The notes under the pieces: model-generated
Seen by the model: only the letters and a program-made list of their open reading frames with translations
Told to the model about the DNA's origin: nothing
Databases searched by the model: none
Program-made: the position numbers and the translations under genes
Part shown: positions 8,110 to 52,974 of the stretch, piece after piece
How the letters are laid out: each line of letters begins with the position of its first letter
Position numbering within the stretch: position 1 is the stretch's first letter
Source: an uncultured Bdellovibrionales bacterium
GTDB lineage: Bacteria > Patescibacteriota > Minisyncoccia > Moranbacterales > UBA1568
Length of the DNA stretch: 64,000 bases
Reading direction: 5' to 3'
Assembly: GCA_964384235.1 (NCBI GenBank)
Contig: CAYLJX010000003.1
Coordinates: 8,389-72,388 of the forward strand

Positions 8110-8235
8110 TTGCAGAGACTTCAGCGTTCGGCACATTTCTTTGTCGCCGCTTTGGTGCTCGATACGTTACGCTTTCGCAGTAGCGCTTACTTCGCTCCTC
8201 GCGGCTCCTCGAACTGTACTCGAACCCTGAAGCCC
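8110..8235 (-). repeat. MITE-like intergenic repeat, copy 1 (inverted orientation)
   Basis: Its reverse complement reads ...cttcagggttcGAGTACAGTTCGAGGagccgcGAGGAGCGAAGTAAGCgctactgcgaaagcgtaacgtaTCGAGCACcaaaGCggcgACAAAGAAATGTGCCgAAC..., which aligns with the copies at 14053, 17206, 47031 and 52857. Confidence 0.7.
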
Positions 8236-8262
8236 GTATTACTTCAGGCACTCTCACGACGC

Positions 8263-8847
8263 TTACATCTCGTAGCGGATGAAGCTTCCAACCTGTATAT
8301 TCTCCCCGATTTTCTGGATCTTTTCAGTAATGAGCGCTCCGACGGTCTTGTCGGCATCCTTGACGAACGGCTGCGTGAGGAGCGCGATATCGTTTCGGAA
8401 CTTCTGTTCCTTGCCCGTCATGATCTTGTCGAGGATCTCGGCCGGCTTGCCCTCCTGGGCGAGCTGCTCACGCCAGATGGCACGTTCCTTCTCGATAGTC
8501 TCCGCCGGGACATCTTCCGGCTTCAGAAACTGCGGGGCGGCGGCGGCGATATGCATCGCGATATCCTTGCCGAGCTCCTGGAACTCTTCGTTTCGCGCCA
8601 CGAAATCGGTCTCGCAGAAGAGCTTGACCATGGCACCGACACGCTTGTTGGAATGGACGTACGAGGCGATGAATCCTTCGCGGGCCTCACGGTCGCCTTT
8701 CTTGAGGGCCTTGTCCTGGCCGCGCTTGCGAAGAATCTCGATGGCTTTCGCTTCATCGCCGTTCGCTTCCTCGAGGGCTTTCTTCACATCGACGATACCG
8801 GCGCCGGTCCGCTCACGCAGGCCTTTGATCTGTTCCAATTGACTCAT
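8263..8847 (-). CDS. tsf: elongation factor Ts (short form)
   Basis: N-terminal UBA-like LRERTGAGIVDVKKALEEANGDEAKAIEILRKRG plus a dimerisation core. 194 aa. Confidence 0.9.
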   Translation of the reverse strand: MSQLEQIKGLRERTGAGIVDVKKALEEANGDEAKAIEILRKRGQDKALKKGDREAREGFIASYVHSNKRVGAMVKLFCETDFVARNEEFQELGKDIAMHIAAAAPQFLKPEDVPAETIEKERAIWREQLAQEGKPAEILDKIMTGKEQKFRNDIALLTQPFVKDADKTVGALITEKIQKIGENIQVGSFIRYEM

Positions 8848-8922
8848 AGATGTAAGGATACTTTGATTTTAACATTCTCTTCCCTTTCGGGACACTCCAA
8901 GAACCGGCAACAATATAAAGAG

Positions 8923-9738
8923 CTATTTGACAGCCTCTTTCTCGGCTTCCTGCTTCGGAGTCACGACGGCTTTCTCCTTCACGGAAAGCACTGCCTTCCC
9001 GAGAAAACCAAGGAGAAGGCGAAGCGACGACAACGCGTCGTCATTGCCCGGGACGGGATAGTCCACGAAGCTCGGATCGGTGTTGGTATCGACGATACCG
9101 ACGATCGGGACACGCATCTTGCGCGCCTCCTTGAGGACGAGGTCCGCCTCCTTGACGTCGGCGATGACGATCGCTCCAGGGAGTTCCCGCATGTGCTTGA
9201 TACCACCGACCTTCTTCTCCAGCTTTTCGAGCTCCTCCATCATCTTGGACTGCTCGAACTTGGTGTACTTCTTGAACTCCCCCGCCGCGAACTTCTCCTG
9301 GGATTCGATGAGGTGCTTGCCGCGGGCATGGATGGCGTTGAAGTTGGTGAGCGTGCCGCCGAGCCAGCGATCGATGACATACGGCTGCCCCAGACGTGTC
9401 GAGAGCGACCGGACCGTCTCGTGGGTCTGTTTCTTCATCCCGACGAAGAGCACCGGCTTGCCGCTCTTTACCACGTCGGCGAGGAAGGCCGCGGCCGCCT
9501 CCATCTTCTCCTGTGTCTTCTGGAGGTTCAGGATGTTGATGTTCTTGCGCGTCGTGAAGATGTACTCGTCCATCTTCGGATGGCGGCGGGACTTGAGGTG
9601 TCCGAAATGCACGCCGGCCTTGAGCATCGCCTCGAGACTCGCATCGAGCTTGTCAAAATCAAAATCAGCGAAAAACGAGTCGTTCGCCTTGGTCGCGGTT
9701 TTCTCGGCAGTCGCGGCTGCCTTGACGCTATCGGTCAT
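8923..9738 (-). CDS. rpsB: 30S ribosomal protein S2
   Basis: ...MLKAGVHFGHLKSRRHPKMDEYIFTTRKNINILNLQKT...VLFVG... is canonical S2. It is followed by tsf as usual. Confidence 0.95.
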   Translation of the reverse strand: MTDSVKAAATAEKTATKANDSFFADFDFDKLDASLEAMLKAGVHFGHLKSRRHPKMDEYIFTTRKNINILNLQKTQEKMEAAAAFLADVVKSGKPVLFVGMKKQTHETVRSLSTRLGQPYVIDRWLGGTLTNFNAIHARGKHLIESQEKFAAGEFKKYTKFEQSKMMEELEKLEKKVGGIKHMRELPGAIVIADVKEADLVLKEARKMRVPIVGIVDTNTDPSFVDYPVPGNDDALSSLRLLLGFLGKAVLSVKEKAVVTPKQEAEKEAVK

Positions 9739-9915
9739 AATGGTTCTTCCTTACTTGGTTACGTCTACCTCTCCTCCTGACGAGACCCGCAAGCGCATCT
9801 TCAAAAAAGAAACGCGAGGAAGGGATCTTCCGGAGAGATATGCTGGATTTTCCCGCTCCCCCGAGAGGGAACGAACGAAGAAAATACAGTCCCTAGTATA
9901 GCAGAGACGGAGGAC

Positions 9916-9944
9916 TTGTCAATTCCTGAAAGACGTGCTAGACT
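9916..9944 (+). promoter_or_regulatory. candidate sigma-70 promoter for rpmE (TTGTCA-17-TAGACT)
   Basis: Hexamers at 9916-9921 and 9939-9944, about 30 nt upstream of the rpmE start. This is a weak motif match. Confidence 0.3.
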
Positions 9945-9973
9945 CTATTTCACTGAAGTAACACCGACTCATT

Positions 9974-10276
9974 ATGAAGCAAGGTATCCACCCCACCTAT
10001 TTCGAGGAAGCGACTGTCACCTGCGCCTGCGGCGCGGTGTTTCAGACTGGCTCGACCGTCCAGACGATGGATGTCGAAATCTGCTCGCAGTGCCATCCGT
10101 TCTATACCGGCAAGAAGAAATTCATCGACACCACCGGCCGCGTCGACCGCTTCAAGAAGCTGACTGAACGCTCCATCGAAAAGAAAGGCGCCCTCAAGAC
10201 CAAGGCTCCTCGCGTCAAGAAGGACCAGAAAGAAAAGAAGGAAACCGCTCCCGCCAAGGCCGAGAAGGCTGCTTAG
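9974..10276 (+). CDS. rpmE: 50S ribosomal protein L31
   Basis: [47 protein letters not shown] has the type-A zinc-binding motifs. Confidence 0.9.
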
Positions 10277-10344
10277 CGACTTTTCTCAAGCGCTTTCTTT
10301 TCCGTACCTGTGCCCCATTACATTCGAAACTTTTGAGAAAGCGC

Positions 10345-10374
10345 AATCCCGTCCATTTGGTCGGGATTTTGTTT
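10345..10374 (+). terminator. intrinsic terminator after rpmE (AATCCCG-loop-CGGGATT + TTGTTT)
   Basis: A stem-loop followed by a T-run, 70 nt past the rpmE stop. Confidence 0.55.
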
Positions 10375-10420
10375 AGAAAAAATTTTAAATTTTGAACTTT
10401 GACTTTTGACTTGTTGTCAT

Positions 10421-11515
10421 ATGAACGATCTCATCACCGAAATCGAACGCGAGCACCAGGCCGTGACCGCGGCTCTGAGCGATCCGGAAATCGTGAAAGA
10501 ACCCAAGAAGCTCGCGGACTTCGGCCGCCGCAAGACCGAACTCGACGCCATCATCGAACGCGCCGAGAAGCTTCGTGCTGTCGAAAAGAGCATGCGCGAC
10601 AACGCCGCTCTCACTCATGATCCGGACATGGACGCGGAGCTCAAAAGCATGGCCATCGAGGAGAACATCGCGCTCGCCGAACAGAAGACCGCGCTCGAGG
10701 AAGAACTGAAGCGCCTCCTCCTCCCGAAAGACCGGAACGATGACAAGGATATCATAGTCGAGATCCGTGGCGGCGCCGGCGGGGACGAATCCACCCTCTT
10801 CGCGGCCGAACTGTATCGCATGTACGTCCATTACGCGGAAACTCTCGGTTGGCGCATCACCATGCTCCACTCCAACCAGACCGAAGTCGGCGGGTTCAAG
10901 GAAGCCGTCTTTGAGATCAACCGCGGCGGAAGCGACATACCGGTCTATTCCAAGATGAAGTACGAATCCGGCGTACACCGTGTCCAGCGCGTCCCTGAAA
11001 CCGAGAAGATGGGCCGCGTCCACACTTCGACCGTGACCGTCGCCGTCCTCCCTCAGGCCGAAGAAGTGGAAATCTCCATCAATCCGGCTGACCTGCGCAT
11101 CGATACCTTCTGTTCCTCCGGTCCCGGCGGCCAATCGGTCAACACTACCTACAGCGCCGTCCGTATCACCCACATCCCGAGCGGTCTCGTCGTCTCCTGT
11201 CAGGACGAGAAGTCCCAGATCAAGAACCGTGACAAGGCCATGAAGGTCCTGCGCTCGCGCCTCCTCCAGATGGAAGAGGAACGCCAGGCCAAGGAGCAGG
11301 GCGACGCCCGTCGCAGCCAGATCGGCACCGGCGACCGAAGCGAGAAGATCCGCACCTACAATTTCCCCCAGGACCGCATCACCGACCACCGTATCAAAGA
11401 ATCCTGGAGCAATCTCCACGGCATCCTCGCCGGCAACCTCGAACCCATCCTCTCCGCCCTCGAAGCCGAGGATATCCGCCGCAAACTGGAAAGACAGTCA
11501 ACAGAAAACAGTTAA
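10421..11515 (+). CDS. prfA: peptide chain release factor 1
   Basis: GGQ motif ([23 protein letters not shown]) and a PET tripeptide (RF1-type PxT). The ORF track starts at 10406, but [10 protein letters not shown] at 10421 is the more likely start. Confidence 0.9.
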
Positions 11516-11637
11516 CAACAAACAAAGAAACACGAATATGTTGCACACTATAACATACGACCGGATATTATAGTGTGCATGCCCGGGAACTTCGTATCCG
11601 TACTGTTTTCTGTTTTTTGTTGACTGTTATCTGATTT

Positions 11638-12522
11638 ATGACCGTTCAAGCGCTCCAAAAAAAATTCCTCCCCTCCCTCGCGCCGGAGGATTTTTTCGTT
11701 CTGCTTGCGGAAGCGACCAGCAAGGACAAGGCATTCCTCCTGGCCCATCCGGAATACGAGCTTAGGGCAGAGACAGAAGCGAAAGCCCAGGAATACTTCG
11801 CGAGACGCCTCCGCCATGAACCAGTCGCCTACATCGTCGGCCACAAGGAGTTCTACGGCCGGGATTTCAGGGTGACCCCCGCGACGCTCATCCCCAGACC
11901 GGAAACCGAACTGCTTGTCGAGCTTACGCTCAACGAGATTTCCAATTTCCAATTTCCAATTTCCAAAAAAATAATCCTTATCGATGTAGGAACGGGGAGC
12001 GGGAATATCATCATCACCCTTGCAAAGGAAATATCATATCTCATATCTCATATCTCATCATTCAGTTTCCATGCAACGGACATTTCCCTCGATGCGCTCA
12101 CCGTCGCGAAAGAAAATTCCAAACGACATCACGTCGATCATCTCATCTCTTTCCATCAGGGCGATCTCCTTACACCGATCATCGATGAACTGAGAGAGGC
12201 AGAACACATCATCATCACCGCCAATCTCCCTTATCTCTCCGAAACGATCTACGATGACGCCGAAGACGACGTGAAGGATTTCGAACCACGAAGCGCACTC
12301 ATAAGCGACGAGGAGGGACTCGCGCACTCATATCGTCTCCTGGAACAGCTCCACGCACTCACAGCACGCAAGTCTCTCGACGTGTTTTTTGAAATCAGTC
12401 CGGAACAATCTTCTCTTCTGCAAGATCGCATCCGGACGCTCTTTCCTGAGTCAAAAACAACTATTCATCCTGACCTTTCCGGCCGGGACAGAATTGTCTC
12501 TTTTTCCCTTTTTCGAGCCTAA
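11638..12522 (+). CDS. prmC: release factor glutamine N5-methyltransferase PrmC/HemK
   Basis: Class I SAM methyltransferase motifs (ILIDVGTGSGNIIITLA and TANLPYLS, the latter an NPPY-like motif). It lies immediately after prfA as in many bacteria. It contains two in-frame heptanucleotide tracts. Confidence 0.8.
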   Translation: MTVQALQKKFLPSLAPEDFFVLLAEATSKDKAFLLAHPEYELRAETEAKAQEYFARRLRHEPVAYIVGHKEFYGRDFRVTPATLIPRPETELLVELTLNEISNFQFPISKKIILIDVGTGSGNIIITLAKEISYLISHISSFSFHATDISLDALTVAKENSKRHHVDHLISFHQGDLLTPIIDELREAEHIIITANLPYLSETIYDDAEDDVKDFEPRSALISDEEGLAHSYRLLEQLHALTARKSLDVFFEISPEQSSLLQDRIRTLFPESKTTIHPDLSGRDRIVSFSLFRA

Positions 12523-12540
12523 AAACAGGATTGAAAAACG

Positions 12541-12572
12541 AAAAGACCCCGACTTTCGTCGGGGCTCTTCGT
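12541..12572. terminator. bidirectional intrinsic terminator (GACCCCGAC-TTTC-GTCGGGGC)
   Basis: A hairpin with A-runs upstream and T-rich sequence downstream on both strands. It sits between the convergent prmC and the small basic-protein gene. Confidence 0.55.
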
Positions 12573-12602
12573 TGGTTAACCAAAAGAACCTGAAAAGGCA
12601 AA

Positions 12603-12722
12603 ACTATTTGCGCTTCTTGGTGGTCTTCTTCGCGGCCTTCTTCTTCGTCACCTTCTTCGCGGCCTTCTTCTTCGTCACCTTCTTCGCAACTTTCTTTTTG
12701 GTTGTCTTTTTCTTGGCTGCCA
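12603..12722 (-). CDS. small lysine-rich basic protein (histone H1/HCT-like), 39 aa
   Basis: Not in the ORF track. The minus-strand ORF MAAKKKTTKKKVAKKVTKKKAAKKVTKKKAAKKTTKKRK is preceded by a strong SD, GGAGGTGA, 6 nt upstream. It contains a perfect 27-nt direct duplication and ends at the bidirectional terminator. Confidence 0.55.
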
Positions 12723-13231
12723 TATTGCTCACCTCCCTCCTTGCCGTTCTTCTCATCCGTCGTTCCCGTTGGAAGCGCTCGGAGGAAGAATCGGATTATT
12801 TTTTCACACAACACGATTTTTATTTTCAGAGTGTGTGATGCGCGGAAAAATTTTTCCGTACATTTTTATTATACTCTCTTTTTCAAAAATGCAAAGGGAA
12901 AAATAATTCCTGTCAACACCTCGTACACTATTACAAACGATGAAGAGAAAAGTTTCATGTAACAACCGAAGAAAAGTAAAATGAGAAATGGAAAATTAAA
13001 AAATTTAAAAGCAAAATTCAAAATGATTTTCAAAAACAAAACCGATCACATCAATCATGCCCTTCATATTTTTAAAATTTTCCATCACCATTTTCCATTT
13101 TCATCTTTCCAATTTCCATTCTCTGTTTCCTCTGCATGATTGGCATACTCACCCGAAAATATTTCTGTGGAACTTCTATCTCTCTACCAAGAAAATCCCC
13201 ATATTACGCTGAAAAACGTGTTTTTTGTCCA

Positions 13232-13260
13232 GTTGACAGGCACTTTTTCAGACCGTAACA
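13232..13260 (+). promoter_or_regulatory. candidate promoter TTGACA-17-TAACAT within a 660-bp AT-rich spacer
   Basis: ttgacaggcactttttcagaccgtaacat lies ~125 nt upstream of the 13385 start. Confidence 0.35.
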
Positions 13261-13975: not shown

Positions 13976-14022
13976 AATCTCGCAACAAGTTCCCCCGTTC
14001 TTTTTCTGCAGATTAAGAAGAT

Positions 14023-14050
14023 AAAACCCCGCAACCGCGGGGTTTTATGT
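14023..14050. terminator. bidirectional intrinsic terminator AAAACCCCGC-AACC-GCGGGGTTTT
   Basis: A perfect 10-bp GC stem flanked by an A4 and a T4 tract, between convergent genes. Confidence 0.7.
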
Positions 14051-14052
14051 TT

Positions 14053-14173
14053 CAAGCTTTCATTTTGGCACATCTCTTCGTTGCAAGCTCCGGTACTCGA
14101 CGCCGTACTTGCATCAGTACGGCTTACTTCGCTCCTCGCTTGCGCCTTGATCTACACTCAAAATGAAAGCTTG
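14053..14173 (-). repeat. MITE-like intergenic repeat, copy 2 (inverted orientation; perfect 15-bp TIR CAAGCTTTCATTTTG)
   Basis: Internal sequence aligns with copies 1 and 3-5. The central hairpin is GCCGTACT-TGCATC-AGTACGGC. It lies between convergent 3' ends. Confidence 0.7.
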
Positions 14174-14180
14174 ACTGATT

Positions 14181-14651
14181 TTAACGGAATTCCACCCGGT
14201 CGCCGACATTGAGTGAGTCCGCCTCGCCGGCGTTCACCTCAAGGACACTGTCGGCCGCCTCCGGAGGACGGAGAACATCTTGGGAATCAGCCGAAACATG
14301 GCGCTCGATATGCACCACCCGGCCGTCCCGAAGCCAGACGATATCGAGAGGAAACCGCATCCCCTTCATCCAGAAAGTATACTCCCCCGGTTGGTCGAAG
14401 ATAAAGAGCATGGCGGAGCGGCTACTGAGCGTGTCGCGATATCCCAAACCCCGACTGTGTTCCGCTTCCGTCCGGGCGATCTCAAGAGTGAAGTATTTCT
14501 CGTGGAACGTCACCTGTGTCGGAAACGCCTGCCAGGAATCCGGTCTTTCTTTCCTTTCAGACCAAAGGAACAGCAGAGCTGCCGCCACTGCCGCTCCGAT
14601 CCCTCCCCACAGGAGGATGCGCGAAATTTTCCGTATTCCGTTAGGAAGCAT
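14181..14651 (-). CDS. DUF192-family protein (secreted/periplasmic, unknown function)
   Basis: N-terminal TM/signal segment, then LEIARTEAEHSRGLGYR...MLFIF...FWMKGMRFPLDIVWL.DGRVVHI, typical of the DUF192/COG1430 family. Confidence 0.65.
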   Translation of the reverse strand: MLPNGIRKISRILLWGGIGAAVAAALLFLWSERKERPDSWQAFPTQVTFHEKYFTLEIARTEAEHSRGLGYRDTLSSRSAMLFIFDQPGEYTFWMKGMRFPLDIVWLRDGRVVHIERHVSADSQDVLRPPEAADSVLEVNAGEADSLNVGDRVEFR

Positions 14652-16111: not shown

Positions 16112-16118
16112 AAAAACG

Positions 16119-17204
16119 TCAGGTTTCTTCCTGTCCTTCCACGAGCGGTGCGGGCTGATTCAGGCCGAGACGCGCCGATCCGAGCTGGTCGCTCACTTTC
16201 TCGAGCCGCTTCTCGGCATCCTCGTATTTCTTGCCGGCATTGCCGAGATGGTTGCCTAGCACTTCGAATTCCCGGATGAACTTCTCATGCTCGCGTGAGA
16301 GCTTCTCCAGCTGCCCCATGATTTCCTTGGCACGCTTTTCGATCTGCAGTCCCTGCAAGCCGAAAAGGATCGTCTTCATGTAGGCATAGAAGGAGTTCGG
16401 CGATACGGGAATCACACGCTTGTCCGAGAGATAATCCAAAAGCCCCTGTTCGTCCTCGTCCTTGATGATGATCTCGTAGTAGACGTTCTCGGCAGGGATA
16501 TACATGAGCGCGAAATCGAGCGTCCCTTCGGCCGGCAGGATGTATTTGGAAGCGATGGCATCGACATGTTTCTTGACATCCGCATAGAACTGCCGCCTCG
16601 CGACGCGGCGCTCCTCGTCGCTCTGAGCCAAGAGGGTTTTCTTGAAATTTTCCAACGGGAACTTGGAATCGACGCTGATGTTTCCGCTCTTCAGAAGGAT
16701 GAGCGCGTCCACCGCTTCCCCGCTCTTGAAAGCGTGCTGGAGCGTGAAATATTCCCTGGGAAGCATTTTTCCAAGGATGTCCTTGAGCATGAGCTCGCCG
16801 AATCCGCCCCGGATCTTGGGTGCCTTGAGGATCTCCTGAAGCGACGCCACCTCCTTGCTCACCTCGAGGATCTGACGGTTCATCTGACTCACTTCCACCA
16901 GCTTTTCCTTCACCTCGGCATATGAGTGGGCCGCTTTGTCCAGACGCTGGTCCAGACGCGACGTATTGTCGCTCAGGCGCTGGTCGAGGGTGCGCTGGAA
17001 ACTCCCGAGCTGCTGATTGAGCGCGCCCGTGATGTGACGCATCTCTTCGTTCAGTTGTCCCTGGAGCATATCCATCCGCGCCCTCAGTTCGGTCTCTTCC
17101 CTCCCCCGACCGCGGAAAGAAAAAGCCAGCCACACTGCCAGGCCGGCTATGATAATACCGATAATGATAAATAATACCAACAAAGACATAGCTTGTGTTT
17201 CCAA
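16119..17204 (-). CDS. rmuC: DNA recombination protein RmuC
   Basis: N-terminal TM, long coiled coil, and C-terminal ...[18 protein letters not shown]...[22 protein letters not shown]..., characteristic of the RmuC family. Confidence 0.8.
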
Positions 17205-17205
17205 A

Positions 17206-17321
17206 AACTTTCAGATTTGAGCACAGTTCGAGGCGCGAGCGAGGAACGAAGAAGGCTGTACTTCCCAGTACAGTGTCGAGCACTGGAGCTCGCAACAAAG
17301 AAATGTGCCAAATATGGAAGT
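17206..17321 (+). repeat. MITE-like intergenic repeat, copy 3
   Basis: aactttcagaTTTGAGCACAGTTCGAGGCGCGAGCGAGGAACGAAGAAGG-CTGTACTTCCCAGTACAG-TGTCGAGCACTGGAGCTCGCAACAAAGAAATGTGCCAAAtatggaagtt. It sits between the stop of the 17322 gene and the rmuC start. Confidence 0.7.
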
Positions 17322-17927
17322 TTACTTCTTGAGACCAGCGATGAAGCGTTTCAGTTCCGGCACTTTGTTCGTCACCTCCTCATACGGCCCCTCCAAAAAC
17401 TCGATGAAGAACCGGTCCAGCATGTTGAGGCGGTAGTGCAACTCCTCGTTGTTCATGAGTACGAACCGGATCTCTTTGCCGACTTCGGCCTCCAGATGAT
17501 TGATGGCGTGCTTGAGCTTGGTGCGGTTGACGTTGTTCACCACCAGGATCATATCCACCTTGCTCTTCGGATAGTTGAGGAACAGGCCGCTGATGAGGAT
17601 GAGTTTCACCTCGCCGACGATCTTGAGCTTGCGGAACACCTGTGACTGCGCATGGACATTGAGCTTGGAGACCAGGCTCTTGAGCTCCGTATAGAACGGG
17701 AAGTCCTCATTGGCGATATAGATCTTCCGCCCCTTCCGTGACCGCTCCACGATGAACTTCATTTTGGCCAGACGCGCCACTTCCCGAGCCACCTCCGTCC
17801 GGGAAACAAGTGTTTTTTCCGATACCTCGGCGGAACTGAATTCTATGCCGGGGTTCAAGAGGAAGAAGCGGATGAGACGGGAACGAGCCTTCGATCCGAA
17901 CAGCGCATCAAAGAGGGCAAGCGACAT
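17322..17927 (-). CDS. hypothetical protein (possible winged-helix N-terminus)
   Basis: 201 aa. No confident family assignment. Confidence 0.45.
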   Translation of the reverse strand: MSLALFDALFGSKARSRLIRFFLLNPGIEFSSAEVSEKTLVSRTEVAREVARLAKMKFIVERSRKGRKIYIANEDFPFYTELKSLVSKLNVHAQSQVFRKLKIVGEVKLILISGLFLNYPKSKVDMILVVNNVNRTKLKHAINHLEAEVGKEIRFVLMNNEELHYRLNMLDRFFIEFLEGPYEEVTNKVPELKRFIAGLKK

Positions 17928-20623: not shown

Positions 20624-23101
20624 CTATACGTTCTCCGCGAGGCGGACACGGTCCATGATCTCGCGGTTGACGATGTTGGCGTCCCGGCCGTAGCGCAGAC
20701 GCGAGAGTTCCTTGAGCGCGTTGGCAATCTCCTGATTCCCATGGGTCGGCGCGTAGGTCTTCATGTTGAACGGCTTGGTGAGCTCATTGTTCATGAGGAG
20801 CCGGACGAAACAGTTGTAGTTGTCGACGTTCATGAGATCGCTCGCCGCAAAGACCGGCGCGAACTGTTTCTCCAAAAATTCCGCGTCCTCCGGTCCCACC
20901 CGGAAGGCCGTGAGTGATCCGACGTTGCCGAAGACCGCCTTGGAGATCTCTTCCTTGAGCTGACCGATGAACTGGTGCGCCAGGATGAGGACGAGACGGT
21001 ACTTGCGCGCCTCGGAGAGGATCTGCGCGATGGAGTTGGTCGTCACGTTCTGGAACTCGTCGAGGTAGAGATAGAAGTCCTTGCGCTCGGCTTCCGGCAT
21101 ATCGACGCGGGACAGGGCCGCCATAAGGATCTTGCCGACGATGACCATACCGAGGAGCCGGGCGTTGATCTCGCCGATCTTGCCCTTGGAGAGGTTGATG
21201 AGGACGATCTTGCCGCTGTCCATGATCTCGCGGAAGTTGAGGGAGCTATGCTGCTGCGCGATGATGGGACGCATCATGTCGTTACTGATGAAGGCAGTGA
21301 GCTTGGACGTGATGTAGGGCACCATGTTGGCAAGCGCCGCGTCGCCGCCGGCCTTCTCCGCTTCCTTGAGCCAGAAGTCACGCACGATCGGATTGGTACA
21401 ATGCTCGAGTTTCATCCGGCGGAAATCCTCGTCGGCGAGCACTTTGGAAATCTCCAAGAGCGTCGATCCGCTCTCGGGGTGTTCCATAATGAGGAGCATG
21501 GCGTTTCGCATGTACTGCTCGAACATCGGACCTCCCGTCGCCTTGAGATCGTAGAGCTGATCGAAGATGCCGATCATCTCGTTGATGACGAACGTCTTCT
21601 GCTCGGGATGCGCCGGATCGTATTCGAGGAGGTTGATACCGATGGGTCGTGCCACATCGGCCGGATCGAAGACAATGACGTCCTCGGCCCGTTCCTTGGG
21701 GATAGCGGTCAGGATGTCCTCGATGGCGTCGCCGTGCGGATCGATGAAACAGAAGCCTTTGCCGGACCGCGCGTCTTTCTTGGCCATTTCCTGAAGATAG
21801 TTGGACTTGCCGACACCCGTCTGTCCGATGACATACATGTGGCGACGACGGTCGTTGTCAGTGATGCGGATGTCCGCCTTGGCACCCCGATAGTCATTAA
21901 AGCCGAGAAGGATGCCCTCCTGGGGAATATTGATCGGGGGCGCAGCGGCGCCGGATTTGAGCCACTTGATCTTGGGCGTTTCGGTGGTCGAGATAGGAAA
22001 GTGGAAGATGCTCGCGATCTCCTCGACGTTCATAATCATGGAGTTCTCCTCGTCGAAATTGCGGAAGATGTAATCATAGAGAGCCTCTTTGGCCCGGACA
22101 CGCTTCCTCACGCGGAAGCGGTTCACTTCCGGATTCTCGAACTGACTGAATGCGTTTTCCATATGCGCGAGGATCTCTTCCGCTCGTTCCTGACTCTTGG
22201 CCGAGGCCACCAGGCGGATGTTCACGCGGAAGGCGCTCTTGCTCGCCTTGGTATCGATCGCCTTGACGAGCTCCTGCTCCTCGGGCGTGAGCTGCACGAC
22301 CTTCTTCTCTTCCGACATCGGATTCTTCTTGGAATTCGTAAGGACGCTCACCATGCCCTTGCCGACTTCCTTGCCGACATCGCTCATGAGCGAACCGCCG
22401 CGCGCGTCCTTGAGCCGTTTGCCTTCCTGCATCTTCTGTGCGAGGGAACGGCCAGCTCCGCGCCACTTGGTCCCCGCCTGCGAGAGAAGCACCTGAATGG
22501 AAGCTCCTTCATCGATCGTCTGGAGACGGCTGAGTGCGTTGGAAATCTCATTGAGGGGATCGACACCCATCTGCCGATACGTCCGAAGCGGCAGCGCATG
22601 ACTCTCCGCAAGCTCGAGCGTCGCTACGACCGACACGCTCTCGGGAGAGAAGACGGTATAATCGGAAACCTTTTCGATGACCGCGTGCGGAAAGAAACCA
22701 TGGATCTGCTTCTCCACGCTCTCGCGAAACTTCTTGGGCACGGACAGATAAAAGAAAATCTCTTCGCTCGAAGACGGGTTGGCGATCTCGAACACGATGT
22801 TCGGTACATGAAAAAAAAGCTTCTTGAGGAAGTTTCCTTTCGGCTTGAGCGTCGCGAGGGTGATGAGGAGCTGTTCCATCGCGAGAATCTCCTCCTTCCA
22901 GGCCTCGGCGCTCCGCTCCCCTTCCGGAAGCTTTTTCTTGGTCACCTGGATGACCTCGAGATCCATATTGAGCGACTGGTTGACCTGGTATCGGAAACGG
23001 AAAAAGCTGCGGATCACGAGCAATGCCCCGGAAAAAAGCGTGAAACCCGCGAGTATCCACGCGAGCGGCACGAACACGATATTCAGATCGAATCCCTCCA
23101 T
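20624..23101 (-). CDS. membrane-anchored P-loop ATPase, type IV secretion coupling-protein-like (VirD4/TraG/TraD family)
   Basis: 825 aa. It has two N-terminal TM helices, Walker A VIGQTGVGKSNYL and Walker B FYLYLDEFQN, and a C-terminal region typical of TraG/TrwB-like AAA domains. It is convergent with the 18098 gene. A HerA/FtsK-like relative is an alternative assignment. Confidence 0.5.
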   Translation of the reverse strand: MEGFDLNIVFVPLAWILAGFTLFSGALLVIRSFFRFRYQVNQSLNMDLEVIQVTKKKLPEGERSAEAWKEEILAMEQLLITLATLKPKGNFLKKLFFHVPNIVFEIANPSSSEEIFFYLSVPKKFRESVEKQIHGFFPHAVIEKVSDYTVFSPESVSVVATLELAESHALPLRTYRQMGVDPLNEISNALSRLQTIDEGASIQVLLSQAGTKWRGAGRSLAQKMQEGKRLKDARGGSLMSDVGKEVGKGMVSVLTNSKKNPMSEEKKVVQLTPEEQELVKAIDTKASKSAFRVNIRLVASAKSQERAEEILAHMENAFSQFENPEVNRFRVRKRVRAKEALYDYIFRNFDEENSMIMNVEEIASIFHFPISTTETPKIKWLKSGAAAPPINIPQEGILLGFNDYRGAKADIRITDNDRRRHMYVIGQTGVGKSNYLQEMAKKDARSGKGFCFIDPHGDAIEDILTAIPKERAEDVIVFDPADVARPIGINLLEYDPAHPEQKTFVINEMIGIFDQLYDLKATGGPMFEQYMRNAMLLIMEHPESGSTLLEISKVLADEDFRRMKLEHCTNPIVRDFWLKEAEKAGGDAALANMVPYITSKLTAFISNDMMRPIIAQQHSSLNFREIMDSGKIVLINLSKGKIGEINARLLGMVIVGKILMAALSRVDMPEAERKDFYLYLDEFQNVTTNSIAQILSEARKYRLVLILAHQFIGQLKEEISKAVFGNVGSLTAFRVGPEDAEFLEKQFAPVFAASDLMNVDNYNCFVRLLMNNELTKPFNMKTYAPTHGNQEIANALKELSRLRYGRDANIVNREIMDRVRLAENV

Positions 23102-23104
23102 ATT

Positions 23105-23206
23105 TGTTGAGTGAGTAGTGAGTAGTTTGTAGTGAGTAGAAAAAATTCAAAAAATCCAGTCGGTATCATTGTTATCGGTCTACCGACTACTCACTACGAC
23201 CTACTC
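23105..23206. repeat. heptamer array (AGTGAGT x4), a 45-nt spacer, then the inverted array (ACTACTC/ACTACGA/CCTACTC)
   Basis: gagtgagtagtgagtagtttgtagtgagtag...ctactcactacgacctactcactc sits immediately upstream of the ATPase start codon. Confidence 0.6.
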
Positions 23207-23654: not shown

Positions 23655-23960
23655 TTACACCAATCCTTCCTTCATCTCTTCCTTAAACTTCTCGACGACT
23701 TCCTTCACGAAGGCCCCGTAACCGGGAATCTTCTGCTCGAAAAACGCCTCCACTTCTTCCTGACTGGCCGACTTGTCGAGCAACCCTTCGTATTCCTTCA
23801 CGCCGGCGTCTCCGAGCTTGTCCATCGTCTCGAGAAAGATCCGTTTGAGGAGCGCCTCCCCTATCTGGGAAAGCAGCGCTTCCTGCTTTTCCGTCGGGAG
23901 CGTCTCCAGATGAAACGTTTCAACGAGTTCTTTCTTCAGTGCTTCTTGGTCGAGAGTCAT
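23655..23960 (-). CDS. hypothetical small acidic helical protein (101 aa)
   Basis: ORF between heptamer-repeat tracts. No family recognised. Confidence 0.45.
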   Translation of the reverse strand: MTLDQEALKKELVETFHLETLPTEKQEALLSQIGEALLKRIFLETMDKLGDAGVKEYEGLLDKSASQEEVEAFFEQKIPGYGAFVKEVVEKFKEEMKEGLV

Positions 23961-23964
23961 ATTT

Positions 23965-24016
23965 TTTTAGTTAGTAGTGAGTAGTTGGTAGTGAGTAGTT
24001 ATGGTTGGTAGTGAGC
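23965..24016. repeat. heptamer array AGTGAGT/AGTTGGT x about 7 (single orientation)
   Basis: tagttagtagtgagtagttggtagtgagtagttatggttggtagtgagcag. The unit is the same as at 23105. Confidence 0.55.
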
Positions 24017-31577: not shown

Positions 31578-32004
31578 CTTTCTTTCACTCTCTCCAGTCA
31601 AAGTCTCCCTTTTCGGAGTCGCTCGCCCGTCCGGCGCGCAACCTCACTCCTGAAGCTCCTTCGCTCTCCTCCTTGCCAGTCGGAACCATGCCCCCGCCTA
31701 GCCGGCGAGGCTGGCGCTTTCGGATCTTCAAGACTCCGAAAAGGAATCTTTGCCTTCCGTTCGAATAAAAGACTCGGAGCTTCCCTGTTTCTTCTCTTAT
31801 CCCTTCCTTCCCGAACAGCAACTCTTTTCGAGACTTTTACAAATTTTTTGCTTCAGTTTTTTTTCCTACCCTAAAGAAAAAATTTGTACTAAGCGAACGA
31901 AACGACTACGGAGAAACATACATTACCACAGATGATGTTGGAGTGAGTGAGCGGGTCGAGAAAGGAGGTTGCTGGAGGAAAGGAAGAAGGAGAGGGAAAG
32001 AAAA

Positions 32005-45954: not shown

Positions 45955-45986
45955 ACTTCCCTCCCTCAGTAACTATAATAGCCCCG

Positions 45987-46994
45987 CTATTTCCCGATGA
46001 GCTCCGCCATCTCGACGAGGCGGTTCGAATAGCCCCACTCGTTATCATACCATGCCACGACTTTCACTAGGTCGCCATCGATCACCTTGGTAAGCGACAG
46101 ATCGACGATACTCGAGTACGGATTGCCGATGAAGTCCGACGAGACAAGCGGCTCTTCGGTGACCGCGAGCACCTTGCGGAAACGCTCCTCCCTGGCCGCG
46201 TCCTTGAGCGCCTGATTGATCTCTTCCTTGGTCGTTTTCTTTTTCAGGAGAAAGGTGAAGTCCGTGAGCGACACGACGATGGTCGGCACGCGTACGGAGA
46301 GACCGTCAAAGAGGCCCTGGAGTTCCGGCATGACCTGCGTCACGGCGATCGCCGCACCAGTCGTGGTCGGGACGATGTTCTCCGCCGCCGCCCGGGCCCG
46401 CCGCAAGTCCTTGTGCGGACCGTCCTGCAGGTTCTGGTCGGCCGTGTAGGAATGGATCGTCGTCATGAGCGCCTTCGCGATGCCGAACTTCTCTTCCAGT
46501 ACCTTGGCTACGGGAGCGAGGGAATTGGTCGTACAGGAAGCGTTGGAGAGCACCGTTTCCGCGCCGTACGTCTCTTCGTTCACGCCGATGAGGAACGTCG
46601 GGACCGCCCCGTCGTCACCCTTGGAAGGCGCCGAAAGGATGACTTTCTTGGCACCCGCCTCGAGATGCTGCGAGGAGCCTTCCTTGTCCGTGAAACGTCC
46701 CGTGCATTCCAAAACGACATCGACGCCAAGTTCGCCCCAGGGCAGTTTCTTGGGATCCGGTTCGGCGAGCACAGGAAACGACCGGCCGTCGACCACGAGC
46801 TTCCCCGCTTCGGCACTCACGTCCTTGCGGTAGTGCCCGTAGGCCGTATCGTACTTGAGAAGATGCGCGAGAATCGGAGCCTCGGTCAGGTCGTTGATCG
46901 CCACGATCTCCAGATCCTTCTTCTCAGAAGCGATCTTGAACGCGGCCCGCCCGATCCGTCCGAAACCGTTGATCGCGATTTTTGTCTTATGCAT
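45987..46994 (-). CDS. gap: glyceraldehyde-3-phosphate dehydrogenase
   Basis: IAINGFGRIGR; active-site ASCTTNSLAP; 335 aa. Confidence 0.9.
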   Translation of the reverse strand: MHKTKIAINGFGRIGRAAFKIASEKKDLEIVAINDLTEAPILAHLLKYDTAYGHYRKDVSAEAGKLVVDGRSFPVLAEPDPKKLPWGELGVDVVLECTGRFTDKEGSSQHLEAGAKKVILSAPSKGDDGAVPTFLIGVNEETYGAETVLSNASCTTNSLAPVAKVLEEKFGIAKALMTTIHSYTADQNLQDGPHKDLRRARAAAENIVPTTTGAAIAVTQVMPELQGLFDGLSVRVPTIVVSLTDFTFLLKKKTTKEEINQALKDAAREERFRKVLAVTEEPLVSSDFIGNPYSSIVDLSLTKVIDGDLVKVVAWYDNEWGYSNRLVEMAELIGK

Positions 46995-47030
46995 ATATAC
47001 TTACCTCTATTTTTAATAAAAGTTTACAGG

Positions 47031-47228
47031 ACTTGAATGTTTGAGTACAGTTCGAGGCGCAAGTGAGGAGCAAAGTAACGGGTCTTACAGACCCGATTTT
47101 ACCAGCACTCGCTCGAAAACGAAAGTAATTTTCGTTTTACTCGCTTCGTTTGGTAATAAGCCGTACTGATGCAAGTACGGCGTCGAGCACCGGAGCTTGC
47201 AACAAAGAAATGTGCCAAACAGGCAAGT
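47031..47228 (+). repeat. MITE-like intergenic repeat, copy 4 (longest; about 20-bp TIR ACAGGACTTGAATGTTTGAG / CCAAACAGGCAAGTCCTGCC)
   Basis: Carries the family core plus two extra hairpins (CGGGTCTTACAGACCCG, CGAAAACGAAAGTAATTTTCGTTTT) and GCCGTACT-GATGCA-AGTACGGC. It lies between the fba stop and the gap start. Confidence 0.75.
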
Positions 47229-47233
47229 CCTGC

Positions 47234-48091
47234 CTACACTCTGTTGGCGCTGCCGAACGCATACATTTTGGCTTTCACTGCCTCTTTGGCACTTTCCTTG
47301 GCCATACCCATCACCTTGCGCACATCCGTCTCTTCTTCCGATTGCAGTGCCCGTTTCAGTCCTCCGATGAACGAGAGCCGGAGTGCCGTATCGACGTTGA
47401 AACAGCTGATTCCGCGCTCGATGACCTGCGCCACCCGTCCGTTGTTCCAATCGGAAGCGCCATGGAGCACCAGAGGACAGGAGACCCGCTTCGCGACCTC
47501 CGTGAGACGGTCGTAATCAGGCTCGCTTCGTTCCTGGAAAAACCCGTGCGCGTTGCCGATGGCGACCGCGAGCGTATCGAGACCGGTCTCGCGGACGAAT
47601 TCCTCCGCCTGGGCCGGGTCCGTCATGTACTGGTCCCAGTCGATCGTGTCCATCTGCATCTCACCGAGATACGGGACGCTCCCGAGCTCCGCCTGCACGA
47701 CGATGCCGCGCATATGGGCCAGAGTGACGATCTTCTTGGTCGTCATGAGGTTGTCGGCATATTCCTTGCGCGAGCCGTCGTACATCACCGACGTGAACCC
47801 GATCTCCATGGCCCGCTCCACCACCTCGAAACTCTTCCCATGGTCGAGATGGATGCCGATCGGGATATCCTTGGCGTAGAATTCCGCGATGTTTTTGATC
47901 AGATGAAAGATCGCCCGGCCTCCCGCGAAATCGAACGTCTTCTCCGTCACCTGGACGATGACCGGGGAACGCAGTTCCTTGGCGGCCTCGATGATGGCTC
48001 GTGTCGTTTCCAGGTTCACGGTATTGAAAGCCCCGACGGCGTATCCCTCGCTCCTCGCCTTCTCCAGCATTTCCTTCACGTTGGTCAACAT
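47234..48091 (-). CDS. fba: class II fructose/tagatose-bisphosphate aldolase
   Basis: GYAVGAFN..N.E; IHLDHG; LHGASDW. The zinc-ligand histidines are present. 285 aa. Confidence 0.85.
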   Translation of the reverse strand: MLTNVKEMLEKARSEGYAVGAFNTVNLETTRAIIEAAKELRSPVIVQVTEKTFDFAGGRAIFHLIKNIAEFYAKDIPIGIHLDHGKSFEVVERAMEIGFTSVMYDGSRKEYADNLMTTKKIVTLAHMRGIVVQAELGSVPYLGEMQMDTIDWDQYMTDPAQAEEFVRETGLDTLAVAIGNAHGFFQERSEPDYDRLTEVAKRVSCPLVLHGASDWNNGRVAQVIERGISCFNVDTALRLSFIGGLKRALQSEEETDVRKVMGMAKESAKEAVKAKMYAFGSANRV

Positions 48092-48102
48092 ACGCTTCTC
48101 TC

Positions 48103-48891: not shown

Positions 48892-48910
48892 ATCAGAGAG
48901 ACAATCTTCC

Positions 48911-49942: not shown

Positions 49943-49981
49943 GTTTTTGTCTTCAGTTTTCTTTTTTCCCGAGAGTCCCTC

Positions 49982-50752: not shown

Positions 50753-50793
50753 ATATCAAAAAAGAGGACTTGAATCCCGGATTATGCAGCTTC

Positions 50794-50826
50794 ATTGTAC
50801 CACAAAAGAAAAAAAGAGGCATCAGG
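50794..50826 (-). terminator. intrinsic terminator overlapping the ruvX stop (AGAGGCCTGATGCCTCT + TTTTTTTCTTTTG on minus strand)
   Basis: A hairpin and T-run lie immediately at the stop codon of the 50822 gene. Confidence 0.55.
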
Positions 50827-51250
50827 CCTCTTTCTCGTTTCTCCGTGTATCCAACCATTCCTGAAGGATGATGCGGGCCGCCTCCTCGTCGTCATGTTTG
50901 GATACCTGCTTCGTACCCCGTTCGATCAAATTGGCCTGGGCCATCTTGGTCGTGAACATCTCGTCCTGATAGGCGATTTCCAGAAAAGGAAAACGTTCTT
51001 TCAGGGACTTGCCGAGCTTTTCTCCGGAATATTCCGCTGTCTCGTGATTGATATAAGAAGGAATACCGATCACGACCGTACCGATACTTTCTTTCAAAAA
51101 GATCTTTCCCAAAGACTCCAGAAGCTTCCCGTCATTTGCAAGCGTCGCGTACGCCAAGGCGACCCGCGTCTCGTGATCCGCCACCGCCACGCCGACATCC
51201 GTCGCTCCCCAGTCGATACCCATATAGTTTTTCTGACCTTCCTTTTCCAT
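50822..51250 (-). CDS. ruvX: Holliday-junction resolvase-like nuclease YqgF/RuvX
   Basis: MGIDWGATDVGVAVAD is the RNase H-fold N-terminus of YqgF, followed by ...IGTVVIGIP.... A possible later start lies at MGIDWG (codon 10). Confidence 0.7.
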   Translation of the reverse strand: MEKEGQKNYMGIDWGATDVGVAVADHETRVALAYATLANDGKLLESLGKIFLKESIGTVVIGIPSYINHETAEYSGEKLGKSLKERFPFLEIAYQDEMFTTKMAQANLIERGTKQVSKHDDEEAARIILQEWLDTRRNEKEA

Positions 51251-51292
51251 GACTTTCGCCTTCTTTCAAGGTTTTGAGAAATTACAAAAACG

Positions 51293-51376
51293 TATCATGT
51301 ATCAAGTATTACGTATTATGTATAAAAGCAAATCATTCCCCATACATAATACATGATACGCAATACACAATACTCC
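51293..51376. repeat. heptamer array GTATnnn x5, a spacer, then the inverted array nATACnn x5
   Basis: gtatcat gtatcaa gtattac gtattat gtataaa agcaaatcattcc ccatacataatacatgatacgcaatacacaatactc, in the intergenic region between map and ruvX. Confidence 0.65.
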
Positions 51377-52144
51377 CTATCTTGTCACGACTTCCGCTCC
51401 TGTCTCAGTGATGACCACCGTGTCCTCGAAGTGTGCCGAAAGCGACCCGTCCGCCGTGACGAACGTCCAGCCGTCGGAGGCGATCCGCACCGGGAAACCG
51501 CCTGCATTGACCATCGGCTCGAGTGCGAGTGTCATGCCGGCCTCGAGGAAAAAATCGTGCATGCCGCGCGAGACATAGTTCGGCACCTGTGGCTCCTCAT
51601 GGAGCTCACGCCCCACGCCGTGTCCCACCAGGTCGCGCACCACCGAACAACCGTTCGCCTCGACGAATGACTGTACGGCCTGCGCATAGACGGAGATCCG
51701 TGCCCCGGGCTTCAGTTCGGCGATGCCCCGATCGAGACTCTCTTGTGTCACATCCAAAAGATGTTTGGCTTCGGCGGAAATATTTCCTACCGGAACCGTC
51801 CGCGCCATGTCAGTCACCATTCCCTCATAACGCAGACCGATATCGAGCTTCAAAAGGTCACCGTCATGCAGTACCCGGTCCCTCTTCGGAATGCCGTGCA
51901 CCACCTCGTCATTGAGCGACACGCACAAAGAAGCCGGAAACGGTGTTCCCGACTCTTTGCCATATCCCTTGAAAATAGGAGTCCCTCCTTCTTCACGGAT
52001 CAACCGTTCGGCGAGCGTATCGATCTCCTCCGTCGTCATTCCCGGCCGGACGCTTCGTATCACCGTATCGAGCACGCGAGCGAGGCGCTTGCCTGACTCG
52101 CGCAGTCGCCTCACCTCATCGTCGGTTTTGATCCACTGTTTCAT
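51377..52144 (-). CDS. map: methionine aminopeptidase, type I
   Basis: ...FKGYGKESGTPFPASLCVSLNDEVVHGIP...HGVGRELHEEP... The start was taken at MKQWIKTDDEV, 7 nt after the adk stop. The ORF track extends 46 codons upstream into adk. Confidence 0.85.
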   Translation of the reverse strand: MKQWIKTDDEVRRLRESGKRLARVLDTVIRSVRPGMTTEEIDTLAERLIREEGGTPIFKGYGKESGTPFPASLCVSLNDEVVHGIPKRDRVLHDGDLLKLDIGLRYEGMVTDMARTVPVGNISAEAKHLLDVTQESLDRGIAELKPGARISVYAQAVQSFVEANGCSVVRDLVGHGVGRELHEEPQVPNYVSRGMHDFFLEAGMTLALEPMVNAGGFPVRIASDGWTFVTADGSLSAHFEDTVVITETGAEVVTR

Positions 52145-52151
52145 ACGAATT

Positions 52152-52820
52152 TCAGGAAATCTCGTTTTTCCCGATACCCTCGAGAATGGTCTGAAAGATC
52201 TTCTCCGGAGTCTGCTCACCGCGCACCCAGAGAAGCCTGCCTCGCTTGGCGAAGTACTCGATGACCGGACGCGTCTCGTCATGGAATATCTGGTACCGTC
52301 GCTCTATGCCTTCCTCCGTATCATCGTCGCGCTGCACCAGTTTGCCGCCACAGACCGTACAAGGGGTCTCTGAATTTTCGATGTCCGTCCCCACCACGAA
52401 CTTCTTGCCGCACTGCGAACAGGAAAAACGTCTCGAAATGCGATCGATAGAGACCTCTTTGGGCAGGTCGATATAGATGACCCGTTCCACTTCGCGCCCG
52501 TGCTCGCGGAAGGCCGAGAGGACTTCTTCGATCTGGGTTTCCCGGCGGGGCGCCCCGTCGAGGATGATACCCTGATCGTCAGGCACTCCGGCAAAGGCGA
52601 GGCGAAGCACTTCCTGGATGATCTCATCGGAAACGAGTTCGTGCCGGACATCCATGGTTTCCTTTACCTCGCGGCCGAGATCCGAGTCATGGCTCGCGAT
52701 CTTACGGAGTTCGGCGCCCATCTCGATACGCGCTTTCTGGAACTGGTCGACGAAAAACTGCGCCTGCGTACTCTTGCCCGATCCCGGCGGCCCAAGAAGG
52801 ATATAGTTCTTTTTGGTCAT
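52152..52820 (-). CDS. adk: adenylate kinase with zinc-ribbon LID domain
   Basis: ILLGPPGSGKSTQA (P-loop) and C-x2-C...C-x2-C in the LID (CSQCGKKF...CTVCGGKL). Confidence 0.9.
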   Translation of the reverse strand: MTKKNYILLGPPGSGKSTQAQFFVDQFQKARIEMGAELRKIASHDSDLGREVKETMDVRHELVSDEIIQEVLRLAFAGVPDDQGIILDGAPRRETQIEEVLSAFREHGREVERVIYIDLPKEVSIDRISRRFSCSQCGKKFVVGTDIENSETPCTVCGGKLVQRDDDTEEGIERRYQIFHDETRPVIEYFAKRGRLLWVRGEQTPEKIFQTILEGIGKNEIS

Positions 52821-52856
52821 CTAAACAGGATAAAGAATTTAAATTTCAAAAGGAAA

Positions 52857-52974
52857 AACTTTCATGTTTGAGTGCAGTTCTAGGCGTAACCGAGGAACGA
52901 GGTAAGCTGTATTTCCAATACAGTGTCCGAGTCCCGGAGGTTACAACAACGAAATGCACCAAACAGGGAAGTTT
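52857..52974 (+). repeat. MITE-like intergenic repeat, copy 5
   Basis: aactttcatgTTTGAGTGCAGTTCTAGGCGTAACCGAGGAACGAGGTAAG-CTGTATTTCCAATACAG-TGTCCGAGTCCCGGAGGTTACAACAACGAAATGCACCAAACagggaagttt. It lies between the secY stop and the adk start. Confidence 0.7.

Follow-up and report, generated by a model that had tools for sequence, protein, structure and literature searches.

A MITE-like family of palindromic repeats beside stop codons in candidate phyla radiation bacteria of Moranbacteria type

Five copies of a rod-like repeat and their relatives

The window, a 64,000-nt stretch of contig CAYLJX010000003.1 (positions 8,389 to 72,388; assembly GCA_964384235.1), contains five copies of a short repeat, all of them intergenic and flanked by genes such as tsf, rmuC, fba, gap, secY, and adk (Table 1). 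The named genes that flank the copies are all on the minus strand. We regard these five sequences as probable non-autonomous palindromic mobile DNA elements, that is, as bacterial MITEs (miniature inverted-repeat transposable elements) in the broad sense, of the kind represented by ERIC, Correia, RUP, bcr1, and the larger REP elements. A preliminary description, made from the letters alone, had placed five copies of a MITE-like repeat here. Direct reading and a covariance model (CM) search bore out all five and refined their bounds, and Pfam confirmed the names of the flanking genes (EF-Ts/TPR, DUF192, hypothetical/RmuC, class II FBP aldolase/GAPDH, and SecY/adenylate kinase). The CM was trained on four window copies and five copies from other genomes, copy 4 being left out. 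The four training copies in the window scored 105 to 124 bits (E = 1e-22 to 3e-27), and copy 4 was recovered although it was absent from the training set (97 bits, E = 7e-21). Copies were 120 to 128 nt long except for the composite copy 4 (208 nt). Automated repeat detection found the left and right halves as direct-repeat families D3 and D5 and as inverted pairs I1, I3, I6, and I10. A possible sixth copy, proposed at 31600-31690, did not survive: an unfiltered CM scan of the full window gave no match there even at E <= 10, hidden Markov models (HMMs) of the half-elements also found nothing, and with all filters off the CM detected no sixth family member anywhere in the window. No additional copy was present in the ~10 kb of the source genome past the window ends.

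Each element folds as a whole into one imperfect end-to-end rod, with minimum free energies of -46 to -54 kcal/mol for the ~125-nt copies (z scores of -5.3 to -7.1). The consensus rod has ~44 pairs: a variable outer stem of ~17 bp is followed inward by 5-bp and 3-bp helices, a 6-bp helix (GCAAGC/GCUUGC), several steps of 1 to 2 bp, and a 7-bp apical hairpin. These helices are interrupted by small internal loops, which are purine rich and conserved. The terminal inverted repeats (TIRs) noted earlier are real, perfect over 15 bp in copy 2 and imperfect over ~17 to 19 bp in copy 4, and the apical hairpins do vary in sequence between copies while retaining their pairing. In copy 4 the outer arms are normal, but there are two apical hairpins (47080-47094 and 47160-47181), and 65 nt of inserted sequence (47095-47159) lies between them. 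Over 63 nt of the right half of copy 4 (47157-47219), identity to copy 2 is 95%, and the outer stems of copies 2 and 4 differ; this pattern of similarity points to exchange between copies. Because a separate, canonical terminator hairpin follows copy 2 immediately outside the element (Table 1), the element itself is not the terminator at that site.

Almost the entire element self-pairs, and the pairing is preserved by compensatory changes. In a model-based alignment of 76 distinct copies, standard pairs filled 92% of cells, compared to 73% when partners were shuffled and 30 to 38% when partners were slid by 1 to 3 columns; double-sided changes occurred at 38 of 44 pairs, and none of 500 shuffles reached the observed values. 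Since this alignment had been fitted to the structure, covariation was tested again on an independent, sequence-only MAFFT alignment of 45 copies, from which RNAalifold predicted the identical rod, with double changes at 34 of 42 pairs. The claim of covariation was thus correct. As to its extent, the internal hairpin does covary as described, but the pairing is not limited to TIRs plus one hairpin and spans the whole element. The further proposal that selection acts on structure rather than sequence stands in its first half only: structure is kept by compensatory changes, but the core sequence is itself strongly conserved. Because copies at one locus are only 57 to 86% identical, no closer to one another than to copies from other genomes, pairing has been maintained in old, diverged copies.

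Copies beyond the window are numerous (~100), and they lie in contigs of the candidate phyla radiation (CPR). The host of the window is itself a CPR bacterium, since its SecY is 88% identical to a protein from a 'Candidatus Moranbacteria' metagenome-assembled genome (MAG) and the next ~100 matches are all from Moranbacteria or Patescibacteria. A search of 185,579 species-representative genomes with an exact degenerate pattern for the right arm gave six matching stretches, each in a CPR-type MAG; with a gapped pattern, metagenome contigs gave 99 matches and viral contigs gave none. The CM recovered 83 plus about 15 copies in CPR metagenomic or MAG contigs, often 2 to 3 per locus. A spread beyond CPR was suggested by two of the six stretches, from MAGs titled 'uncultured Bdellovibrionales' (L003, CAYTED010000003.1; L002, CAYGEA010000013.1). 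This was rejected for the contig examined, L003: the nearest named relatives of its YifB are Moranbacteria/Patescibacteria (65 to 68% identity), and judging from this protein its 'Bdellovibrionales' label or binning looks wrong. The name 'Paceibacterota' was taken only as a synonym for the entire CPR phylum. In Rfam 15, only tRNAs reached the gathering score in the window and nothing overlapped the copies; with permissive thresholds, no family overlapped copy 3 at E <= 10 or, with the limit set at E <= 1, any of the four copies from L019, L054, and L093. Plasmid and phage collections held no similar sequence, and blastn (word size 11) of copy 3 against all complete Escherichia coli genomes (5,426) gave no match. 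We conclude that the repeat family is spread among CPR bacteria of Moranbacteria type and that it is uncatalogued and new as a family.

Table 1. Copies of the repeat in the window and the adjacent terminator-like hairpin. The strong strand is the strand of the family consensus.
Feature	Position	Strand	CM search	Fold (kcal/mol; z score)	Remarks	Context
Copy 1	8113-8238	-	104.9 bits, E 1e-22	-54.1; -5.25	most degenerate copy	between tsf (8263-8847, -) and TPR gene (7167-8102, -); starts ~24-27 nt past tsf stop; strong strand sense to genes
Copy 2	14050-14176	-	123.7 bits, E 3e-27	-54.5; -7.13	15-bp perfect TIR	5-7 nt downstream of DUF192 gene (14181-14651, -); strong strand sense to DUF192 gene
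Terminator-like hairpin	14021-14048	-			top-ranked site of this kind; 12-bp stem, 6 GC pairs, T-rich tail	immediately past copy 2, outside element
Copy 3	17202-17326	+	122.6 bits	-46.5; -5.49		occupies spacer between 201-aa hypothetical gene (17322-17927, -) and rmuC (16119-17204, -); strong strand antisense to genes
Copy 4	47026-47233	+	97.2 bits, E = 7e-21	-85; -8.2	composite, 208 nt	between fba (47234-48091, -) and gap (45987-46994, -)
Copy 5	52853-52977	+	123.3 bits	-49; -6.77		between secY (52975-54246, -) and adk (52152-52820, -); strong strand antisense to genes

Empty sites, termini, and docking at stop codons

We compared the window with four relatives (SecY identity 78 to 88%; 21 kb each). 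The order of ribosomal-protein genes, secY, and adk was the same in all four, and that of tpiA, fba, and gap in three (84 to 88%), and no copy of the repeat was found in the 21 kb from any of them. The secY-adk spacer is 154 nt in the window and 30 and 16 nt in two relatives of the 84 to 87% SecY identity class (L111 and L112, respectively); the fba-gap spacer is 239 nt in the window, 37 and 20 nt in these two relatives, and 45 nt in a third (L110; 88% SecY identity), whose secY-adk spacer is not an empty site. The surplus length in the window is approximately that of the element. The C terminus of SecY (...RSYESF, then the stop) is alike in the window and L111, the end position of the aldolase is likewise the same, and the ~32 nt left between the element and the next start codon is a normal spacer length. 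Because the relatives' spacers are short and empty of the repeat while both proteins and the original spacer are unchanged, the element was inserted precisely at the stop codon. This presence/absence difference at orthologous sites agrees with the earlier view of the family as MITE-like.

The ribosomal-protein operon of L110 has many spacers of 100 to 390 nt (e.g., 11273-11455), compared to 10 to 40 nt in the other relatives. The only one read, the secY-adk spacer, is AT rich. Since our family has no copy in the region, some other insertion or repeat may be involved.

The consensus termini are 5'-(A/T)TAGGACTTACGCAGTTGGATG ... GCGCCAACTGCGTAAGTCCTA(T/A)-3', also written (A/T)TAGGACTT...AAGTCCTA(T/A), and all five copies in the window end in degenerate forms of these sequences. 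The family consensus is flanked by TA (columns 2-3 and 301-302 are T and A) and has TAG at the start of either strand; this TAG is paired with CTA at both ends and is preceded mostly by A or T. Because the TA-flanked consensus starts with TAG on either strand, the element can re-create or supply a stop codon.

Three window copies had been described as ending at stop codons, those of the 17322-17927 gene, of fba, and of secY, and each copy indeed abuts or overlaps its codon. Copy 3 overlaps a TAA (17322-17324) with its 3' end, copy 4 ends one base before the TAG of fba (47234-47236), and the 3' end of copy 5 overlaps the TAA of secY (52975-52977). Copies 1 and 2, in the opposite orientation, lie a few to some two dozen nucleotides past a stop (Table 1). 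To count such docking across the family, same-site duplicates were removed, leaving 85 non-redundant sites, and coding-like open reading frames (ORFs) of at least 80 aa ending at most 9 nt from an element end were recorded. An ORF on the opposite strand ended at the 3' end of the model in 37 of 85 sites, and an ORF read into the 5' end at 9 of 85, 5 of these 9 being convergent gene pairs with both arrangements. Sites with only one of the two arrangements were strongly biased (32 for the 3' end versus 4 for the 5' end; binomial P = 2e-6). The docked stops at the 37 sites comprised 20 TAG, 16 TAA, and 1 TGA codons. Most commonly, the terminal TA of the element plus a G formed the stop codon; next came a stop immediately before the element. 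The start of the next gene usually lay 0 to 65 nt beyond the far end.

Strand asymmetry, mobility, and alternative readings

The two strands of the element are not equivalent. Folding favored the strong strand over its complement in 66 of 68 copies with RNA parameters (mean of -53.5 versus -43.3 kcal/mol) and in 67 of 68 with DNA parameters. G-U/G-T pairs outnumbered A-C combinations (195 versus 82), and a single column held 38 of the 82 A-C cases; other mismatches were mainly purine-purine (G-A, A-G, or A-A). The conserved unpaired bases of both arms are mostly purines, giving four loops of the tandem G-A type, and two apical pairs (U-A and A-U) are invariant. Where an element abuts a stop codon, its strong strand is in most cases antisense to the gene that ends there. 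A strict rule tying orientation to the replication strand was rejected: GC skew is uniformly negative in the window, yet copies 1 and 2 lie on the opposite strand from copies 3 to 5; any weaker, statistical tendency of this sort is confounded with the direction of the genes. Possible causes of the orientation bias include selection against the stabler, Shine-Dalgarno-like (GGAG-rich) strand in mRNA beside a stop, loss of copies with the strong strand on the lagging-strand template, and an insertion mechanism specific to one strand; by analogy with ERIC, orientation-dependent RNase effects may also contribute. One could also imagine that the purine-rich strand, whose rod combines four loops of the tandem G-A type with fixed G-U wobbles and, in its apical stem, an invariant UA/UA step, is a conserved single-stranded ligand (RNA or single-stranded DNA) read by a dedicated protein, in which case the 32:4 docking would reflect strand-specific insertion at gene ends or a CPR-specific role in the fate of operon mRNA at translation termination. 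We consider this idea improbable.

Several lines of evidence favor a mobile origin and justify the MITE-like label given earlier: the further copies, the covariation, the empty orthologous sites, the TA-flanked consensus termini, and variants in which only the ends are kept. A composition independent of the host fits too: element GC stays near 0.49 and does not track that of host loci, which ranges from 33 to 63% (r = 0.13). Some copies (L029, L061, L073, L085, L059, and window copy 4) combine expanded or unrelated interiors with preserved ends of ~28 nt on either side. Because such variants keep only the ends, the ends are singled out as the part needed for propagation, and this is the typical look of MITE families; the outer stem (~17 + 5 + 3 bp) is conserved family-wide. 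The family also shares with the MITEs reviewed previously (PMC2229807) a size below 200 bp, dispersal in multiple copies in non-coding spacers, TIRs, TA termini, and presence or absence at orthologous sites.

Other observations weigh against this interpretation. Simple cut-and-paste transposition does not predict the strand asymmetry or the 32:4 orientation bias. Flanks show no longer direct repeat that would mark a target-site duplication, and the TA is self-complementary and inseparable from the last pair of the palindrome; the empty sites available for this comparison come from other species, not strains, and in the window the ends of the copies are degenerate. Conservation of the inner core, unpaired purines included, exceeds what is usual for the interior of a MITE. 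No recent burst is visible, copies at the same locus being no more alike than those of different genomes. The A+T richness relative to the host that is typical of MITEs is not seen family-wide: mean element GC is 0.49 versus a mean host-locus GC of 0.46, and the element is higher in 43 of 68 cases, although in the window four of five copies fall somewhat below the host (0.44 to 0.48 versus 0.55). A parent has not emerged either. An nhmmer search for half-elements standing apart and a fuzzy-matching search for TIRs that were solo or distant, both run on all fetched loci, returned only internally expanded copies. Neither these ~0.9 Mb nor the window revealed an autonomous element or a transposase with matching ends; in the window, the 20 ORFs scanned with Pfam included no transposase. 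Inspection of translations showed no transposase between the inverted copy pairs of L093 and L066, the gene between the former resembling signal peptidase I and those between the latter membrane proteins. Plasmids, phages, and viral contigs yielded no related element.

The ~125-bp element was thus inserted at, or a few bases from, a stop codon and left the reading frame and the original short spacer intact. If the family is mobile as we propose, copies would be moved in trans by a transposase encoded elsewhere. By analogy with RUP, the first choice would be a TA-targeting DDE transposase of the IS630/Tc1 type, preferred because of the TA ends, long TIRs, and ends-only variants; the second would be an HUH/Y1 enzyme (RAYT/TIRYT-like) acting on a folded single strand. 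Transcripts of the operon would then include the inserted element as a long hairpin, either intercistronic or 3'. Selection acting on this transcribed hairpin would keep the pairing and filter the orientations that survive beside a stop codon, possible reasons being tolerance by terminating ribosomes, RNase processing, or mRNA stability. Beside a mobile origin, there may be a secondary use by the host.

That second choice of enzyme is the core of a serious alternative, in which the element moves as folded single-stranded DNA by way of an HUH/Y1 transposase or a similar structure-specific recombinase and is a giant REP rather than a DDE-type MITE. Such a route would account for the strand-specific structure and the TAG termini. 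The better folding of one strand under both parameter sets, the excess of G-U/G-T over A-C combinations, and the conserved purine-purine mismatches on the same strand of both arms are all consistent with it. The terminal TAG also recalls the GTAG tag of REPs, at which RAYT cleaves single-stranded REPs and whose termini likewise supply TAG stops (PMC3733652), and RAYT-like genes with long flanking TIRs that form repeat families (TIRtrons) are known. However, the ends of our element are symmetric, TAG being paired to CTA and not left free as a tag on one side; TAG is mostly preceded by A or T instead of G; and the element is 3 to 5 times the size of REPs. No Y1 transposase was seen near any copy by inspection, no systematic profile search of all loci having been made, and a mechanism bound strictly to the replication strand conflicts with the presence of strong strands on both DNA strands despite the uniform GC skew of the window. 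On balance, we hold this single-strand route to be rather unlikely.

Two readings make the element an RNA of the host. A cis-acting module is conceivable, in which a hairpin after the stop stabilizes or processes the upstream mRNA (as a block to 3' exonucleases or an RNase III/E site) or uncouples translation, its mobility being only historical. The retention of pairing in old copies, the tightly constrained position after a stop and before the spacer of the next gene, and the biased orientation relative to the upstream gene argue for it, and there are precedents in the orientation-dependent effect of ERIC on mRNA and in the siting of REPs near ORF 3' ends. Against it, no operon needs the element, since close relatives carry the same operons without it; the mRNA usually contains the complement of the better-folding, purine-looped strand; and copy 2 is followed by its own terminator. 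We find this module doubtful, and a purely host-functional RNA is unlikely as the origin of the family because close relatives do without the element. Alternatively, the copies could be independently transcribed small RNA genes whose rod-like products bind a protein through the tandem G-A loops. Conserved G-U wobbles, purine-rich internal loops, and invariant positions do make the strong strand RNA-like, and its frequent antisense placement to flanking genes would call for an own promoter. However, the flanks are not conserved, a scan around copies 1 to 3 revealed no promoter-like site or T-tract terminator framing the element, many copies occupy the entire spacer between cotranscribed essential genes, and neither the relatives that lack the element nor the absence of an Rfam match fits such genes. 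We therefore regard this last reading as very improbable.

Three further identities were rejected. Integron attC sites occur in cassette arrays next to an integrase. The copies here are single and lie between housekeeping genes (tsf, fba/gap, and secY/adk), there is no integrase among the window ORFs scanned with Pfam, and their GTTTGAG / GCCAAAC motifs are unlike the R''/R' core sites RYYYAAC / GTTRRRY. An intrinsic (Rho-independent) terminator does not fit, there being no consistent T tract after the rod and copies lying inside operons such as secY-adk. Nor is the element a REP proper: at ~125 nt with TAG paired at both ends, it is not a 20- to 40-bp palindrome with an unpaired GTAG.

Among known systems, ERIC (or IRU; ~127 bp), whose effect on upstream mRNA depends on orientation (PMC2229807), resembles the family in size class, in its end-to-end imperfect palindrome, in having TA at both termini, and in its location in transcribed spacers just downstream of genes. 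The two differ in that they have no sequence similarity (there being no blastn match in E. coli), in the CPR hosts of our family, in its conserved purine-purine inner loops, and in the frequency with which its terminus forms or abuts a stop codon. ERIC, Correia, and RUP elements have TIRs and end in TA, their transcripts form stem-loops, and their effects depend on orientation; Correia hairpins serve as substrates of RNase III, and RUP is thought to be mobilized by IS630-Spn1 at TA targets (PMC2229807). RUP (Streptococcus pneumoniae, 107 bp) and Correia/NEMIS (Neisseria, 104 to 157 bp) are thus comparable as small, dispersed, non-coding TIR elements with TA ends and long stem-loop transcripts. 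In contrast to our family, for which none was found, they have a parent insertion sequence or TIR similarity to a known one, and RUP copies are highly similar, reflecting recent spread, unlike the diverged same-locus copies seen here. A parallel for compensatory base changes that preserve structure is bcr1 of the Bacillus cereus group (~155 bp), a transcribed mobile repeat whose RNA structure is kept in this way (PMC3184786); bcr1 differs in that direct repeats of 5 bp flank it, docking at stop codons is not reported for it, and its sequence is unrelated to that of our family. REPs lie close to upstream ORF ends, and their termini supply TAG stops (PMC3733652). The REP/RAYT system shares with our family this terminal TAG that often supplies a stop, frequent G-T pairs in the stem, and an asymmetry of strands, REPs being recognized on one strand (PMC3733652). 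REPs are only 20 to 40 bp long with an unpaired GTAG at one end, whereas our element measures ~125 bp and has both ends paired, as (A/T)TAG...CTA(T/A), and inspection of translations showed no RAYT gene with the family.

Other features of the window and significance

The window contains further structured or repeated sequences. A tRNA-like element is present in two copies of ~148 nt (5288-5437 and about 6054-6200, both on the plus strand) that are 91% identical over 131 nt and sit within a cluster of five tRNA genes on the minus strand (Glu, Trp, Thr, Tyr, and Thr). The 5' and 3' ends of each copy pair with one another, with compensatory differences between copies (CCTAAGGGGA/TCCCCTTAGG versus GGGAGGGA/TCCCTCCC), and a T-arm-like GTTCGA(T/A)TCC lies near the 3' end; neither ARAGORN nor Rfam calls them. 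An inverted repeat at 5415-5503 (39-nt arms, 79% complementary) pairs the 3' end of the minus-strand tRNA-Glu with that of the tRNA-like element, and a perfect terminator-like hairpin (aaagtaaatacccacccc...ggggtgggtatttactt) stands between its arms. Near-identical CU-rich 40-nt leaders at 23099-23139 and 23958-23998 (CTACTCACTAC.AACTACTCACTACT.ACT.AA.AAATATG) reach the ATG, have no Shine-Dalgarno-like motif, and precede two minus-strand genes, one for a TraG/VirD4-like ATPase (20624-23101) and the other a 101-aa ORF (23655-23960). The spacer between the RuvX-like and methionine aminopeptidase genes holds an AT-rich inverted repeat (51292-51373; 32-nt arms, 78% complementary, 18-nt loop) that is unrelated to the family studied. 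Finally, a tandem repeat with a 27-nt period (12 and 15 nt alternating) at 12617-12700, within the minus-strand ORF 12461-12814, would translate into a repeat rich in lysine and alanine.

The genomes of CPR/Patescibacteria are small and dense, and their mobile DNA is little known. Text searches of the literature found no MITE or repeat family described for CPR/Patescibacteria; the element studied here therefore seems to be a well-known kind in a host group for which none has been described. The family could explain some unusually long spacers, such as secY-adk and fba-gap in the window, and such repeats may break short-read assemblies. With the CM, annotators have a means not to mistake these hairpins for genes or terminators. 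Occurring across hosts of widely different GC and settling at stop codons, the family marks gene flow between uncultured lineages. Its most notable parts are the docking at stop codons with its orientation bias and the conserved, purine-looped strong strand. Together, these offer a natural test of how a long hairpin is tolerated right after a stop codon and of why one orientation is preferred.

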